Below are positions 1,776 through 7,071 of a stretch of 11,732 nt of DNA, in pieces. The stretch comes from a virus (Duplodnaviria; Heunggongvirae; Uroviricota; Caudoviricetes): IMG/VR virus record IMGVR_UViG_2548876857_000009. One strand, written 5' to 3'. How positions within the stretch are numbered: position 1 is the first letter of the stretch; each line of letters starts with the position of its first letter. The notes beneath the pieces were generated by a model. The model had not been told where the DNA came from and did not search any database. It worked only from the letters and a program-made list of their open reading frames with translations. The translations under genes were made by a program, and so were the position numbers.

Positions 1776-1910
1776 AGGAAAAAAAATTTTTTTTCGAAAG
1801 AACTGTTCACACTGTTCACCTTTCTGTTTTCTCCTTTTATTTCATAGTGATAGGTGGTGAATAATGGGTGAAGGGTGAACATTCGATTCTTCACCTCCGG
1901 CATTCTGCCG
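1776..1910. repeat. crr (cis replication region) direct repeat copy 1, with type-I iteron octamers
   Basis: Contains TGTTCACACTGTTCACC and the inverted GGTGAA...GGTGAAGGGTGAAC. Near-identical to copy 2 exactly 180 bp downstream (1803 aligns to 1983). Confidence 0.8.
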
Positions 1911-1955
1911 GTGTGACTCATACCGGTGATTAATCCTCCGCACTGAAATCACTCA

Positions 1956-2090
1956 GGAAGAAAAAAGTTTTTTTTGATTTGATTGTTCACACTGTTCACC
2001 TTTCGTTTTTCTCTTTTAATTTCAGTGTGATAACGGGTGAATATACGGTGAAGGGTGAACAGTGGATTGTTCACCTTCGGGGGATTCAGG
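1956..2090. repeat. crr direct repeat copy 2
   Basis: Same octamer arrangement as copy 1 at 180-bp period. Matches the P4 crr description (two ~120-bp direct repeats separated by ~60 bp) located just downstream of alpha. Confidence 0.8.
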
Positions 2091-2134
2091 GATGAAAAAA
2101 GACCGGCAGATGCCGGTCAGATGAGTCATGAGGG

Positions 2135-4468
2135 TCAGGTTGTTGCAGGGTCGTCACATTTTGGCAGCCAGTCGCCGTAGCTTTCCTCTTTCAGTGTCAG
2201 GTTGGTCTGTATCCCCTGTTTGGTATGGCGCTTCTCGTAATTCAGTCCGTATTCCTTCAGCATCACCGGCAGCCCCAGCCCGAACATTTTCAGGCTGAGT
2301 ACATTCCGGTAGCCGTTTGCCTCCATGTAGGCCAGATAGGCGTGATAGAGGTATTTACGGTAATTACGCGGGATGATACTGGCGTTCCCCATATACATGC
2401 CGCTGGTCTGCGGCAGGGTTTCCAGATAGCCGATAAAATCAAACGTCGGGTCGGCATCCCGTTTGATGTTCAGTGCCTCGTCTGAGTTCTGCTGGGACTG
2501 AAGCAGTGACCGGGCGAGCATCGGGTCGCTGAACTTCTGCATCAGGTGACGCACGATGACCGCCAGCTCGCGGGTGATTTTGTCCTTAAGCTGCGGGTCG
2601 CGCTCCTGCGGGGCTATCTGTTCCGGGAAGTGAATAATCACCCGCCGGCGTGACACGCCGCCGCTGCGGTCGGTGAAGCGCATCGGGTTATTGTTCACGG
2701 CCAGAATCACCGCCGGGATGTGCGTGGAGTATGCATCCCGGTATTTCGGGTCAACGGACACCGCATCGCCGCCGGTGATGGCCTTGAGTCCGGCACCGTC
2801 GCCGCTCCATTTTTCCTGGTCCGGCAGGCGTATCAGTGAGAAGCCAGTTAACGCGGCACGTTCACGCGGGGATTCCAGCGTCTCGATGGTGGCCGACGTG
2901 GCGTTATCCTCCCCGGCCAGCAGGGTGGCTATTTCGGCCATGATACTTTTGCCGCTGCCGCCGGGACCGGTCACCTCCAGAAAGAGCTGCCAGTCGTAGC
3001 GGTTTGCCAGCACCATAAACAGTGCGGCCAGAATCACGTCGCGTTTTTCCGCACGGCCACCGGCGGCACGGTCAAGCCAGCGCCAGAACGCGGGGGCGTG
3101 GGTTTCCAGCGTTTCCCCTTCCACCGGCGGGGTGAAATCCACATCGCACAGGGTGCGCATCCAGTGTGACGGACTGTGCGGGTGGAACGTGCCGTTCTGC
3201 GTGTCGAGCACGCCGTTACGAAAGCCAATCAGGCGGCGGGAGGGGGCTTCCTGCTGCGGAATAATCAGCTTCAGGGTGTCCACCACGGAGGCCACCTTCC
3301 CGGAGGAGAACGGCGCACGCAGCCGCTGAAACAGCCCGGCCACATCCCGGGCAAAGTCCTGTGGTGGCAGCACCTTCCAGACACCATTTTCATAACGGGA
3401 CAGAAGCTGGCCGTTGGCATCGACCGCGAGCGCCTCGCCGTAATGCTCATAGATACGCATGGCCTTTTCGCTGGTACTCATGGCGGAAAACTCCGCTTCG
3501 CTCATGGTGTCGAACGGGCTTTCAGCCGGTGGCCGGATGGCATCGTAAATGGCCTTACGGGTGGCTTCCCCGCCGTACTGCGTGAAGGCATCATTCCAGT
3601 CACCGAAGACCGGCGGCAGGGCAACAACACCTTCACACGCATCTGCGGCTGCGGCGGCTTTTTTCTGGCCGTCACCGCTGAGGTCACGGTCTGCGGCAAG
3701 GACAATCTGACAGGCCGGATGCTTCTGCCGGGCAAGGCTGGCCAGAGAAAAGAGGTTCACGGAAGAAAGCGCCACCATCACCGTTTCACCGGTCAGGTGA
3801 TGTACGGTAAGTGCGGTCGCGTATCCCTCCGCTATCCACAGACGTTTTCCGGCCTGATTCTGTCCTTCAAGGATGTGACAGGTGCCCCTGACCTGCCCGC
3901 CTTTCAGGGTGCGCTTACGGCCGTCAGCGCTGATTAACTGAAGGTTAACCAGTTCGCCGCTGTCGTCATACAGTGGCACCACAAGGTCACCGGCGCGCCA
4001 GCTCACGCCACCGGCTCTGTGTGTGCCGGTCAGCATCCGGCATTCCCGGCCGGGAAAGCCCTTGCGGGTCAGGTAGGCGTTACCGGTTCCGGTACGGGTT
4101 TTCGCCATCAGGGTTTGTGCCAGTGCGGCGGCGTTCTTCCGGGCAGCGTCTGTTTCAGCGCCGGCGGCGGCCGTCACTGCCGGGTCAGCCGGGGGCAGGC
4201 TGCCGGTCACGGCAGCCACCTTTGCGGCCGCGTCGGACGGGGAAACACCAAACACCTTTTCAACCAGTTTCAGGCCGTCACCGGCACCACACTGATTGCA
4301 GTACCAGGTGCCGCGCCCCTCCCTGTCATCAAAACGGAAGCGGTCACTCCCGCCACAGACCGGACAGGGCTGATGACGGTTCTTAAGCACCTGAATCCCC
4401 AGCGCCGGGAGAATACGCGGCCAGTGGCCGAGCGCATGGCTGACGGTGGCGGTTACGTTCATTTTCAT
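2135..4468 (-). CDS. alpha: P4 alpha-type replication protein: N-terminal zinc-binding primase fused to a D5/SF3-type helicase
   Basis: 777 aa, the same length as P4 alpha. N-terminal Cys motif CPVCGGSDRFRFDD...CNQCG; Walker A VTGPGGSGKS in the C-terminal half. RBS AAGGAGAA 8 nt upstream of the ATG at 4468. Sits between cnr and crr as in P4. Confidence 0.9.
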   Translation of the reverse strand: MKMNVTATVSHALGHWPRILPALGIQVLKNRHQPCPVCGGSDRFRFDDREGRGTWYCNQCGAGDGLKLVEKVFGVSPSDAAAKVAAVTGSLPPADPAVTAAAGAETDAARKNAAALAQTLMAKTRTGTGNAYLTRKGFPGRECRMLTGTHRAGGVSWRAGDLVVPLYDDSGELVNLQLISADGRKRTLKGGQVRGTCHILEGQNQAGKRLWIAEGYATALTVHHLTGETVMVALSSVNLFSLASLARQKHPACQIVLAADRDLSGDGQKKAAAAADACEGVVALPPVFGDWNDAFTQYGGEATRKAIYDAIRPPAESPFDTMSEAEFSAMSTSEKAMRIYEHYGEALAVDANGQLLSRYENGVWKVLPPQDFARDVAGLFQRLRAPFSSGKVASVVDTLKLIIPQQEAPSRRLIGFRNGVLDTQNGTFHPHSPSHWMRTLCDVDFTPPVEGETLETHAPAFWRWLDRAAGGRAEKRDVILAALFMVLANRYDWQLFLEVTGPGGSGKSIMAEIATLLAGEDNATSATIETLESPRERAALTGFSLIRLPDQEKWSGDGAGLKAITGGDAVSVDPKYRDAYSTHIPAVILAVNNNPMRFTDRSGGVSRRRVIIHFPEQIAPQERDPQLKDKITRELAVIVRHLMQKFSDPMLARSLLQSQQNSDEALNIKRDADPTFDFIGYLETLPQTSGMYMGNASIIPRNYRKYLYHAYLAYMEANGYRNVLSLKMFGLGLPVMLKEYGLNYEKRHTKQGIQTNLTLKEESYGDWLPKCDDPATT

Positions 4469-4482
4469 GGTGTTGTTCTCCT

Positions 4483-4803
4483 TCAGTGCAGTACCGGCGC
4501 TTTTATGTGACGGGCACAGAGTTCATCCATCACAACCAGCCCGAGAAAGGACAGCGACGGCGCGGCCTTCAGGGGGCCGGATTCCATTAAATCTTCCAGC
4601 AGGGCACAGGCTATCTGACGCCCTTTTTCCTCACCGTGCTGGCGCAGATAAAAGCCTTCCAGCTCAGCGGCGATGGCCGCCTCCAGTGATTCAAGGGTGA
4701 GATGCGGGTAGCGGTGCTGACGTTCGCACACGGTCAGCCAGGCACAGGCGACAGCACGACGGTAAAGGGCTGCGCGTAAGACGGGCGGTAAGGGTGTTTT
4801 CAT
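4483..4803 (-). CDS. cnr: Cnr-like copy-number regulator (P4 orf106 equivalent)
   Basis: 106 aa, immediately upstream of alpha on the same strand; RBS GGGAGG 8 nt before the ATG. Assigned by size and position as remembered for P4; no sequence memory to confirm. Confidence 0.6.
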
Positions 4804-4938
4804 TTGCTTTCCTCCCTGTGACAGATGACTGCATTCCGTGCCGGTTGCATTAACTGATAAGGCATATCTGCGTCTCCTGAAGACGTGCGTATCCCTGCGC
4901 GAATACGCACATTTAATTTTTCGGGTGTCGTTTTTTAA

Positions 4939-5394
4939 TTACAGATAATTGCGGTAACTGTTATCCGGGGTGATTTCCGGGTCAGGCTCCGTGCGGGGAA
5001 TTTCCCGCCATTCCCGCGCCACCGGTGCCGCCCGGCTGACCGGAACAGGGTCCTGCGGGTAAATATCCAGATATTTCTCCCGCCATTTCTGTAATTCCGG
5101 GTCTCCGGCCATTTCTTTCAGTACCGCATGCCGGTTTACGGGGCTGCGTTTAAACAGGTCAGGACGGTCACAGGTAAATTCCCGCAGAAAACGCCCCAGC
5201 GGGATGTCTGTGGTGCGCCCGTCAGCGAGGATACGCACAAGGATACTGAATTTACGGCGGTACGGGTTCCAGACAATGTCCGGGCAGCGGTACGGCATTT
5301 CCCACGGAATACCGTCTTCCAGAATGCCGACCACGGCCACATCGGGAAAACCGGCAGAACGGTAAATCTCACCGGGCTGGGGAAAATCAAACAT
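4939..5394 (-). CDS. Hypothetical protein, P4 orf151 equivalent
   Basis: 151 aa ORF in the position of P4 orf151, upstream of cnr. Its start overlaps the stop of the upstream ORF, suggesting operon coupling. Confidence 0.6.
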   Translation of the reverse strand: MFDFPQPGEIYRSAGFPDVAVVGILEDGIPWEMPYRCPDIVWNPYRRKFSILVRILADGRTTDIPLGRFLREFTCDRPDLFKRSPVNRHAVLKEMAGDPELQKWREKYLDIYPQDPVPVSRAAPVAREWREIPRTEPDPEITPDNSYRNYL

Positions 5395-5674
5395 GCGTCT
5401 TGTCTCCCCGGTCTTTCTGCTGGGCGAGAAAATCGCGGCACAGGCCTTTGGCTTTCAGCTCATTCAGCACAAAATCAATATCTTCATTCAGGTAGCTGAA
5501 AATATGCGGAATGTAGAGCTGATGCAGGCCGGAGAGTTCACGGTGAATCAAATCACCCCCAACAAACTGGGATACGGCGCTGGCGCGGTTGAGCTTATGG
5601 TAAGCCTCAATGCTGAGGTGTTCACGGGCGTCATGACGCGCTGAGACGGTCTGAGGGGCTTTTTTATTACGCAC
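5387..5674 (-). CDS. Hypothetical 95-aa protein, GTG-initiated; possible P4 epsilon (eps) equivalent by position
   Basis: The frame has no internal Met. GTG at 5672-5674 is preceded by GGAGG at 6-nt spacing and overlaps the stop of the upstream 65-aa ORF (GTGCGTAA). The eps name is a positional guess only. Confidence 0.5.
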
Positions 5675-5864
5675 GGGACACCTCCACCACCGGCAGACGG
5701 GCAGCAAGGGAGAGCACATAGTCACGGACAAGGGAACGGCGGGCGCTGCGTTCATCACCGGCGACGGTGCGAAGCATACAGATACGGGGATGACGGTCTG
5801 CGCGACGGACAGCCGCAAACACAAAGACAAATTCAGGGTGTGAAGGGGTAAGGGTTGTAGCCAT
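5667..5864 (-). CDS. Hypothetical 65-aa protein of the early-left operon (kil/eta region)
   Basis: ATG at 5862-5864 preceded by AAGGAG at 8-nt spacing. It is the 3' part of the ORF-track frame 5667..6302, whose upstream portion I regard as noncoding. Confidence 0.5.
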
Positions 5865-5929
5865 AAGGCAGTCTCCTTCGAGTAGCAAATAACTGCTATC
5901 GCCGGAGTTCCTACGCTCGATGGCGATAG

Positions 5930-6000
5930 CCCAGACGGGGGTAGGAATACCGGCCTCGAAGAATACCGGCCAGCCCGGAGGCTGCCCCGCCTGAGCTACC
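5930..6000 (-). ncRNA. Candidate CI-RNA-like immunity RNA (seqB-like element); approximate boundaries
   Basis: On the minus-strand transcript AUUCCUACCCCC (plus 5937-5947) is complementary to GCGUAGGAAC, which occurs upstream (plus 6150-6159) and downstream (plus 5907-5916). This is the seqA-seqB-seqC arrangement of P4 immunity. The region also has tRNA-like motifs (GGUAGCUCAGG, UUCGAGG), consistent with RNase P processing. No convincing ORF with an RBS. Confidence 0.3.
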
Positions 6001-6253
6001 ATTGACTCAGTGGCATAACATGCGATTGCGAACAGGATCATACCTGCACGGCAAACCACACGCCACACCATAATCTGGCGCTCTGTGGCGTTGATTGCGA
6101 CACAAAAAAAGACGCATGGCGCGTCATATGTCGCCTTCGAGTTACACGGGTTCCTACGCCCGGCTGCCGATTTTGCGGCAGCGGAAAAACTATATCCGCA
6201 AATGCCGGAAAAAGGCAAGCCAGAAAAAGGGACTTTTTGCAGAGCGGGCATCA

Positions 6254-6520
6254 TCATGCGTCGTACCCCCGTTTGCGTCCGGCAATGCGTCCGGCCATCC
6301 ATGCGGTGACTTCAGAGTGCAGCCAGGCCACATTTTTACCGCCAAGACTCACCTGCGGCGGAAATTCCCCCTTACGGATGAGTTCGTAGATGGTCGAGCG
6401 TGACAGGCCGCACAGGTGCATCACTTCCGGAAGACGCAAAAAACGCTCCTGTGTGATGTCCGGCTGCGGCATCAGTGGCGTCACAGGGGCGGGAGACGGG
6501 GAAGAAAAAACAGCTTGCAT
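6254..6520 (-). CDS. vis: AlpA-family DNA-binding regulator, Vis-like (P4 orf88 equivalent)
   Basis: 88 aa. Motif [48 protein letters not shown] is typical of AlpA/Vis HTH proteins. RBS GAGGT 7 nt upstream. It is the first gene downstream of the leftward TGT-N12-ACA dyad. Confidence 0.75.
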
Positions 6521-6622
6521 CGGGCTACCTCGTTAATGTCCATACAGCACCGGATAAGTCCGTCCGGCTTCGGGTAGCGCTTTATTTTGTGAATATTTTC
6601 AGCAGACGCAACAGGGGGAATT

Positions 6623-6640
6623 TGTTCCGGCAACCTTACA
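6623..6640 (-). promoter_or_regulatory. Candidate Delta/Ogr-dependent late promoter element (PLL-like) driving leftward transcription into vis
   Basis: TGT-tccggcaacctt-ACA (TGT, 12 nt, ACA). P2/P4 late promoters carry this dyad centred near -55, which would place the start ~50 nt upstream of the vis ATG. Confidence 0.45.
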
Positions 6641-6796
6641 ATGGCTGTGTGTTTTTTATCCATCCGGACTGGAAGGGTCTCAAAGGGTTCTGAAGGACCT
6701 GGAATTTTTTATAGTGAAATGCAAATTGTTTTTTCTTATTTATTTCAGTTAATTAATAAAAATAAACAGTAATAAACAGCATAAAAAGCCCATCAA

Positions 6797-6904
6797 CGGG
6801 TGAACAGTGGTGAACAGACGGTGAACAGTCATTACTGCGATTATTCACCCTTTAACTTACTGTATTACTTATCTTTTTTCTTATGGTGAACAGAGGTGAA
6901 CAGT
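6797..6904. repeat. ori-like iteron cluster (replication origin)
   Basis: GGTGAACAG three times in tandem (6798-6828), an inverted TTCACC (6845-6850), then GGTGAACAG twice (6886-6903): six octamers in an AT-rich context. The same octamer occurs in crr ~4.9 kb away, matching the P4 ori/crr arrangement. Confidence 0.75.
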
Positions 6905-6981
6905 AAAATATAAAAAAACAAACAGTAAGCCGGTTTTTCCTGCGACCTTTTCCTGGCTTGCCGGTCTGAGGATGAGTCTCC

Positions 6982-6999
6982 TGTGTCAGGGCTGGCACA
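6982..6999 (+). promoter_or_regulatory. Candidate Delta/Ogr-dependent late promoter element (Psid-like)
   Basis: TGT-gtcagggctggc-ACA dyad ~80 nt upstream of the sid ATG; possible -10 CACAAT near 7034-7039. Confidence 0.5.
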
Positions 7000-7071
7000 T
7001 CTGCAATGCGTCGTGTTGTTGTCCGGTGTACGTCACAATTCTCTCAACCTGAAGTGACGAGGAGCCGGAAA

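Follow-up and report, generated by a model that had tools for sequence, protein, structure and literature searches.

A P4-type RNA immunity module with recognition boxes that differ from those of P4

An RNA immunity module in a P4-like satellite genome

We found that a stretch of phage DNA of 11,732 nucleotides (virus record IMGVR_UViG_2548876857_000009, here called the window) carries on its minus strand a cI-seqA-seqC RNA immunity module of the P4 type, as an earlier note on this DNA had proposed from its repeated motifs. The module is orthologous to the immunity region of satellite phage P4 and is matched by Rfam models. We regard the interval as very likely to be a P4-like satellite prophage's immunity region. 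RNA immunity of the P4 type is an already known system, and the understanding of its mechanism is unchanged by these findings.

Positions 1781-9113 of the window aligned with positions 4291-11624 of P4 (X51522) at 97.4% identity over 7.3 kb. The order of genes was as in P4: crr, alpha (777 aa), orf106, orf151, epsilon, the old 'cI gene product', ORF88 (vis), sid, delta and psu. The genes that define membership in a P4-like satellite genome, namely alpha, epsilon, sid, delta, psu, crr and int, were all found, and the module belongs to the P4 immunity family, whose testable defining features were all present. Related DNA was detected in 2119 of 5426 complete E. coli genomes, and the RefSeq labels for the interval are 'host cell division inhibitor Icd-like protein' together with an AlpA-family or helix-turn-helix regulator.

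The prophage's own integrase (10521-11732) is truncated at the window end. A second P4-type integrase was seen on the minus strand at 1-1451, divided between two ORFs, with 963-1451 corresponding to profile positions 1-150 and 225-872 to profile positions 182-395; since it is split in this way, it is a pseudogene. An IS911/IS3 fragment (1-242) adjoins it, and both lie before position 1781, where homology to P4 starts. The second integrase and the IS fragment are probably traces of a neighbouring island, in tandem or decayed. No gene for a tRNA was found in the window. A 328-aa ORF (9283-10269, plus strand) lies between psu/cos and the integrase, where it occupies the place of P4's gop-beta-cII region, and searches of Pfam, NCBIfam, PADLOC and PHROGs returned no match to it. 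Anti-phage systems have been reported from this P4 'hotspot' between psu/cos and the integrase (PMC9122126).

Repeated motifs and RNA elements of the module

The window holds exactly two copies of the motif GCGTAGGAAC, which lie on the minus strand as stated in the earlier note (6150-6159 and 5907-5916), and 200 dinucleotide-preserving shuffles gave an expectation of none. CTCGAAGG was likewise found exactly twice on the minus strand (6134-6141 and 5875-5882), with 0.27 copies expected and two or more copies in 6 of 200 shuffles. The complement said to lie between the two sites is indeed there, as AUUCCUACCCCC at 5948-5937, and the interval previously given for it (5937-5947) was one base short. 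The spacing of '~15-30 nt' proved roughly right: the motif and CUCGAAGG are separated by 8 nt at the first site and by 24 nt at the second, or 18 and 34 nt from start to start. Overlooked earlier was that CUCGAAGG, too, has its complement between the sites, UCUUCGAG at 5962-5955, which is placed in an RNA hairpin loop. The CGAAGG that had been taken for a ribosome-binding site at both positions is mainly a second antisense target box, and a genuine Shine-Dalgarno sequence (AAGGAG, 5878-5873; 8 nt upstream of the kil ATG) is overlapped by the downstream copy alone. Chance repeats were ruled out by the shuffles and by covariation in 51 haplotypes (see below); the arrangement of the motifs is far beyond chance, is conserved and covaries at all three sites. 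The box names used here follow P1 and Rfam usage, and their mapping onto the P4 names is our own.

We then have the Rfam covariance-model scan that had been suggested as a check, in which C4, isrK and c4-a1b1 all scored above their gathering scores on the minus strand; all elements described in this section are on that strand. A PLE-type sigma-70 promoter is predicted at 6189-6218 (TTGCCT, an 18-nt spacer and TATAGT). It is internal to eta, identical to P4 at the same position and the sole promoter-like site in 5600-6700. The isrK model begins at 6182, which is the expected +1 of PLE, and delimits the isrK-like seqA leader at 6105-6182 (RF01394, 72.3 bits, gathering score 50). The order within this leader is hairpin 1, hairpin 2 with box a1 (GUAGGAA, 6151-6157) in its loop, box b1 (CUCGAAGG, 6134-6141) and the terminator t1. 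The c4-a1b1 target at 6143-6195 (RF03163) scored 49.1 bits against a gathering score of 46.7, a margin of just 2.4 bits. The predicted intrinsic terminator t1 (6104-6125) is composed of GACGCGCCAUGCGUC followed by U7, its stem running from 6125 to 6111. It is contained in the isrK model and is the sole terminator-like site in 5600-6700, and its stem covaries from G-C to C-G.

The CI RNA was matched by the full-length C4 antisense RNA model at 5919-6006 (RF01695, 74.4 bits, gathering score 45, E 2.1e-13), positions that give the span of the match and not the mature ends. It has the shape of a long closing stem with two internal hairpins, and its fold has an MFE of -48 kcal/mol (z = -4.69). Box b' (UCUUCGAG, 5955-5962) is found in the loop of the second CI hairpin and covaries with its targets; box a' (UUCCUAC, 5941-5947), which was the central motif of the earlier note, is found in a single-stranded joint. 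On the other side of CI, box a2 of seqC (GUAGGAA, 5908-5914) is presented by a hairpin at 5895-5930, the 5' arm of which is also the 3' arm of the CI closing stem, and a2 lies in its loop just as a1 lies in the loop of seqA hairpin 2. Box b2 of seqC (CUCGAAGG, 5875-5882) is the copy that overlaps the kil Shine-Dalgarno. In the window itself, all 15 of the 15 designated CI pairs form at both seqA and seqC.

Covariation of the three sites among relatives

Loci were collected with Kil as the query and included at least five from other genera (Kosakonia, Enterobacter, Phytobacter, Kluyvera, Mixta) and 80 from viral contigs. Between PLE and kil, they comprised 51 different haplotypes (alignment A2). 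For CI and seqA, 99.0% of cells were paired across the 51 haplotypes and 12 of the 15 pairs showed double-sided changes. The covariation score was 0.668 compared with 0.231 in shuffles, none of 500 shuffles reached it, and slid controls gave 41-51% pairing. Box a1 was paired with a' in 99.7% of cells (6 of 7 pairs double-sided) and box b1 with b' in 98.3% (6 of 8 pairs). Results for CI and seqC were 98.2% paired, again with 12 of 15 pairs double-sided, a score of 0.628 compared with 0.230, and slid controls at 37-50%. Here box a2 was paired with a' in 100% of cells (6 of 7 pairs double-sided) and box b2 in 96.5%, the shortfall at one pair of b2 being an alignment artefact of the GUUAUCGG allele.

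The structures around the boxes were conserved as well. The a2-presenting hairpin, in which 5930-5922 pairs with 5903-5895, was 99.0% paired with four double-sided pairs (slid controls 26-54%). The MFE fold of the seqC region alone differs from this hairpin, and we preferred the structure supported by covariation. The internal helices (the two seqA hairpins, t1 and the CI fold) were 100% paired in the 51 haplotypes, with six compensated pairs. C4 and isrK matches were also found together in distant relatives, namely in Kosakonia, Mixta and viral contigs.

Some haplotypes suggest recombination between seqA and cI, and a lesser need for pairing at seqA than at seqC. Four of the 51 (L062, L075, L021 and L065, in the stretch before kil, near 850-1200) have a seqA or a b box that does not match CI, so seqA pairing may be dispensable. 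In L062 and L075 the boxes of CI and seqC always agree, and those of seqA are of another type. The b boxes of L021 and L065 are degenerate, and in L065 the eta frame is broken as well.

We also observed that GCUAUCGCC (5930-5922), the 3' arm of the CI closing stem, can pair with the CI 5' arm or with GGCGAUAGC (5903-5895) further downstream. All three strands covary in the region 5895-6001, for example from AUCGCC to ACCACC. A second Rho-independent site, t4, was reportedly placed between cI and timm by Briani et al. in 2000. As a speculation, the second (a2) hairpin followed by UUAUUU might be this atypical terminator t4 of P4.

Recognition boxes and predicted specificity

Alignment with the P4 immunity region, another check named earlier, gave 95% identity, and many of the substitutions fell inside the boxes, where they were mutually compensatory at all three sites. 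For box a, the targets a1 and a2 read GUAGGAA in the window and face UUCCUAC in CI, and in P4 the targets GUGAGAA face UUCUCAC. For box b, targets b1 and b2 are CUCGAAGG and face UCUUCGAG in the window, and in P4 UUCACAGG faces CCUGUGAA. Duplex energies of the window CI boxes were -7.7 and -9.7 kcal/mol on their own targets and -0.8 and -0.3 kcal/mol on the P4 targets. Since both boxes differ from those of P4 at all three sites, heteroimmunity is predicted: the window element would be immune to itself and probably not to P4, as judged from box energies alone and for boxes that are short (7 and 8 bp).

The 51 haplotypes contained 15 CI types, built from at least five a alleles and at least seven b alleles in mixed combinations. 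The three common a alleles were combined with four to five b alleles; one a allele occurs with several b alleles, and the reverse also holds. The window's own type (the a3/b2 allele combination) was present in 5 of the 51 haplotypes. The three a alleles of E. coli (GUGAGAA, GUGGAAA and GUAGGAA) differ by transitions alone, so that G-U wobble intermediates could permit stepwise change with pairing kept. Alleles are constrained by their presence in triplicate (seqA, CI and seqC) and by the requirement for no stop codons in the overlapping eta frame. We tentatively raise the possibility, which we think somewhat doubtful at present, that immunity specificity in P4-like satellites is a modular two-box code that has changed by repeated reassortment or by wobble-mediated steps, with selection for heteroimmunity. 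No description of the combinatorial pattern of boxes was found in the literature searched, the primary P4 and phiR73 papers lying outside that search.

Just two pairs of loci came from the same genome: L010 and L079 differ in both boxes, and L031 and L032 have the same CI type. Matched box differences from P4 offer a simple, readable predictor of mutual exclusion among P4-like satellites. Such a predictor is relevant since these satellites bear hotspots of anti-phage defence and are often found together in E. coli.

Genes overlapping the RNA

The vis/orf88 homolog (6254-6520, minus strand) encodes an AlpA-family regulator of 88 aa (Pfam Phage_AlpA, 7.3e-21) and is at the same position as P4 ORF88. 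Its stop codon is overlapped by the start ATG of eta (ATGA), and an ORF starting at an ATG on the vis stop (GCATGATGATG) was found in several lineages. The eta gene (5667-6257, minus strand; 196 aa) contains PLE, seqA, t1, cI and seqC, with kil in frame at its 3' end. Compared with P4, the window has a 9-nt in-frame deletion between t1 and cI, which is why its Eta has 196 aa and not the 199 aa of P4.

The 211-aa ORF listed for this region had been thought spurious upstream of 5864. Our results contradict this: the frame, which is that of eta and kil, is open through the whole RNA region in 49 of the 51 haplotypes, starts on the vis stop and matches P4 eta. It was the listed start that was too early, the conserved start giving 196 aa. 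In the 330 nt upstream of kil, stop codons summed over the haplotypes numbered 3, 125 and 277 for the three frames. Indels were multiples of three or compensated pairs (e.g. +1/-1 between seqC and the ATG), and the two haplotypes with a broken eta frame have uncompensated deletions of 1 or 2 nt. Dinucleotide shuffles kept the eta frame open in 0.6-5% of cases per lineage (seven lineages, P 0.006-0.05). Alleles differ drastically in the residues that the boxes encode (E, G or R in the targets; L, S or P in CI); there the open frame is conserved and not the peptide. P4 gene eta is described as containing PLE, seqA and cI and as being translated only from the late promoter (PMC10111431). The earlier note would have taken translation of the 211-aa frame as evidence against the RNA module; since the P4 RNA module and an overlapping translated frame coexist, that refutation is invalid.

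The kil gene (5667-5864, minus strand) encodes an Icd-like protein of 65 aa (NCBIfam NF033153 phage_ICD_like, 76.1 bits). It follows seqC as the first gene to be translated from transcripts made at PLE, with its Shine-Dalgarno overlapped by box b2, and Kil has been described as a truncated Eta (PMC10111431). The fragment of P4 that holds the Rho-dependent terminator timm has the coordinates X51522 8365-8209 (PMC3177188), which map to 5864-5708 of the window, so that it begins at the kil ATG. The predicted timm homolog (5708-5864, minus strand) is therefore inside kil, and 155 of its 157 bases are identical to P4. A 29-aa ORF (6127-6038) had been put forward as kil-like, a role that belongs to the 65-aa ORF at 5864-5667. 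The shorter ORF has AAC, CAG or TAG in place of its ATG in eight haplotypes and is anywhere from 22 to 46 aa long; it is read in the +1 frame with respect to eta, with its start inside the t1 stem, and a search for a family match to it found none. We conclude for annotation that the 29-aa ORF is not to be called a gene and that the long ORF is eta with kil nested in it.

The translation of the long ORF matched Pfam Phage_ASH (1.9e-23), and its PHROGs label is 'transcriptional repressor'. The span of the Pfam family PF10554 ('Ash protein family'), 5829-6194 on the minus strand or residues 37-158 of the 211-aa ORF, covers the PLE leader, the CI RNA and seqC. A 'cI gene product (AA 1-137)' is still listed in the P4 GenBank record. 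A C4-family RNA (77.5 bits; L088 2532-2619, minus strand) on an IncI-type E. coli plasmid lies beneath a CDS for an 'ash family protein', and the immunity region was matched at 890 places on E. coli plasmids. The protein annotations here largely shadow an RNA gene: the repressor is an RNA, yet databases label the frame 'Ash', 'cI gene product' or 'transcriptional repressor'.

Proposed mechanism and alternative readings

The anatomy, pairings, covariation, Shine-Dalgarno overlap and conserved frame were observed here, and the functional steps for the window element are all transferred from P4. By this analogy we infer that the element is functional. As in the P4 literature, constitutive transcription from PLE would produce a leader with seqA (a1, b1), t1, cI and seqC (a2, b2), followed by kil. 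RNase P, for which CI is a known substrate, and trimming at the 3' end would release a CI RNA of ~80 nt from the same leader, and this RNA would act in trans on newly made PLE transcripts. In P4-like prophages, the seqA and CI RNA of the P4 literature are the homologs of IsrK and C4 (PMC3632133, Barquist et al.), and CI from the untranslated transcript is reported to pair with the upstream seqA and the downstream seqC, leading to premature termination (PMC4825925, Hershko-Shalev et al.).

In the window, the single-stranded a' and the looped b' of CI would pair with a1/b1 and a2/b2, the target a boxes being exposed in hairpin loops. Pairing at seqA would favour termination at t1 and would in this way limit transcription of cI itself. 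Briani et al. in 2000 reportedly found that CI and seqA stimulate termination at t1, autoregulating CI. Pairing at seqC would cover the first bases of the kil Shine-Dalgarno and leave kil untranslated, and with kil untranslated Rho can, according to the literature, terminate at timm inside kil. The downstream genes from epsilon to alpha (helper derepression and replication) would then stay silent. On induction, transcription would come from the late promoter upstream of vis, and eta, coupled to vis, would be translated through seqA, cI and seqC, so that termination would be overridden. Translation of kil and eta has been reported to counteract termination (PMC10111431).

Three other readings were weighed against this P4-type mechanism. 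The region might be only protein-coding (Eta, Pfam 'Ash'), with the motif a repeated peptide (…ERRN… / …GRRN…) that has no RNA function, and the open and conserved frame, the Phage_ASH match (1.9e-23) and the PHROGs 'transcriptional repressor' label all agree with that. The changes at variable positions are, however, Watson-Crick-compensatory between sites on one strand, for which a peptide repeat cannot account, and this covariation effectively refutes the protein-only reading. An amino-acid sequence that is unconserved at the boxes, Rfam structure models far above threshold and a literature in which the repressor is an RNA (PMC3632133, PMC4825925, PMC10111431) also speak against it, and we give it next to no probability.

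An RNA could also act purely in the manner of P1/P7 immI, just blocking Icd-like translation at a2/b2, in which case downstream silencing would be polarity and seqA and t1 would have no role in termination. This reading draws on the Rfam clan shared with P1 c4, the Icd-like nature of Kil, the overlap of b2 with the Shine-Dalgarno, the position of timm inside kil and the mismatched seqA tolerated in some natural haplotypes. It must face a seqA:CI covariation as tight as that of seqC:CI (99.0%), a conserved and covarying intrinsic terminator directly after seqA, and the CI-dependent termination involving seqA described in P4 work (PMC4825925), and we judge it very improbable. Lower still is the probability that we give to the logic of IsrK in Gifsy-1, by which the t1-terminated leader would trans-activate downstream translation on read-through transcripts or serve as a CI decoy. 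The isrK match is full length and includes the terminator, the leader is complementary to CI and so could titrate it, and in S. Typhi the IsrK-like elements of P4-like prophages were found by TraDIS to be required (PMC3632133). Against this, orf45-anrP-isrJ is absent downstream, and P4 genetics gives seqA the role of a target (PMC4825925). The P4-type mechanism, with CI acting at both seqA and seqC, is the one that we retain.

Comparison with known systems

The small CA RNA of the N15 anti-immunity system, reportedly described by Ravin in 1999, is likewise antisense and processed, and it acts on downstream genes through termination. It belongs to a different element, a linear phage-plasmid, and controls an antirepressor.

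The leader of the window fits the full length of the model of Gifsy-1 IsrK from Salmonella (72.3 bits), and IsrK has been described as a structural homolog of P4 seqA (PMC4825925). IsrK of Gifsy-1, however, is a trans-activator of orf45-anrP translation, whereas the window is without those genes and has cI, kil and epsilon downstream. To our knowledge, no IsrK-like trans-activator role has been described for P4.

With immI of P1/P7 the module shares an Rfam clan (C4, c4-a1b1) and the pairing of a'/b' with a1/b1 and a2/b2. In both, the first gene is Icd-like and has its ribosome-binding site under b2, and the immI RNA is processed by RNase P from the same transcript. Downstream, however, the window has no ant and carries epsilon (Pfam 'Derepression'), orf151, orf106 and alpha instead. 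Beyond what immI has, the P4 type carries an intrinsic terminator linked to seqA and an eta frame that overlaps the module. Despite the same logic and the same RNA clan, the module is not a member of P1/P7 immI.

There is reportedly a precedent for heteroimmune alleles in retronphage phiR73, a P4-like element for which Sabbattini is said in 1996 to have found that the CI and seq boxes set a different immunity specificity. The paper in question (Sabbattini et al. 1996, Virology 216:389) is cited in PMC7567579. The immunity region of P4 itself is orthologous to that of the window, with the same gene order, an eta frame coupled to vis in both, and a promoter, terminator, CI stems and kil protein that are nearly identical; the two differ in the alleles of both recognition boxes at all three sites.
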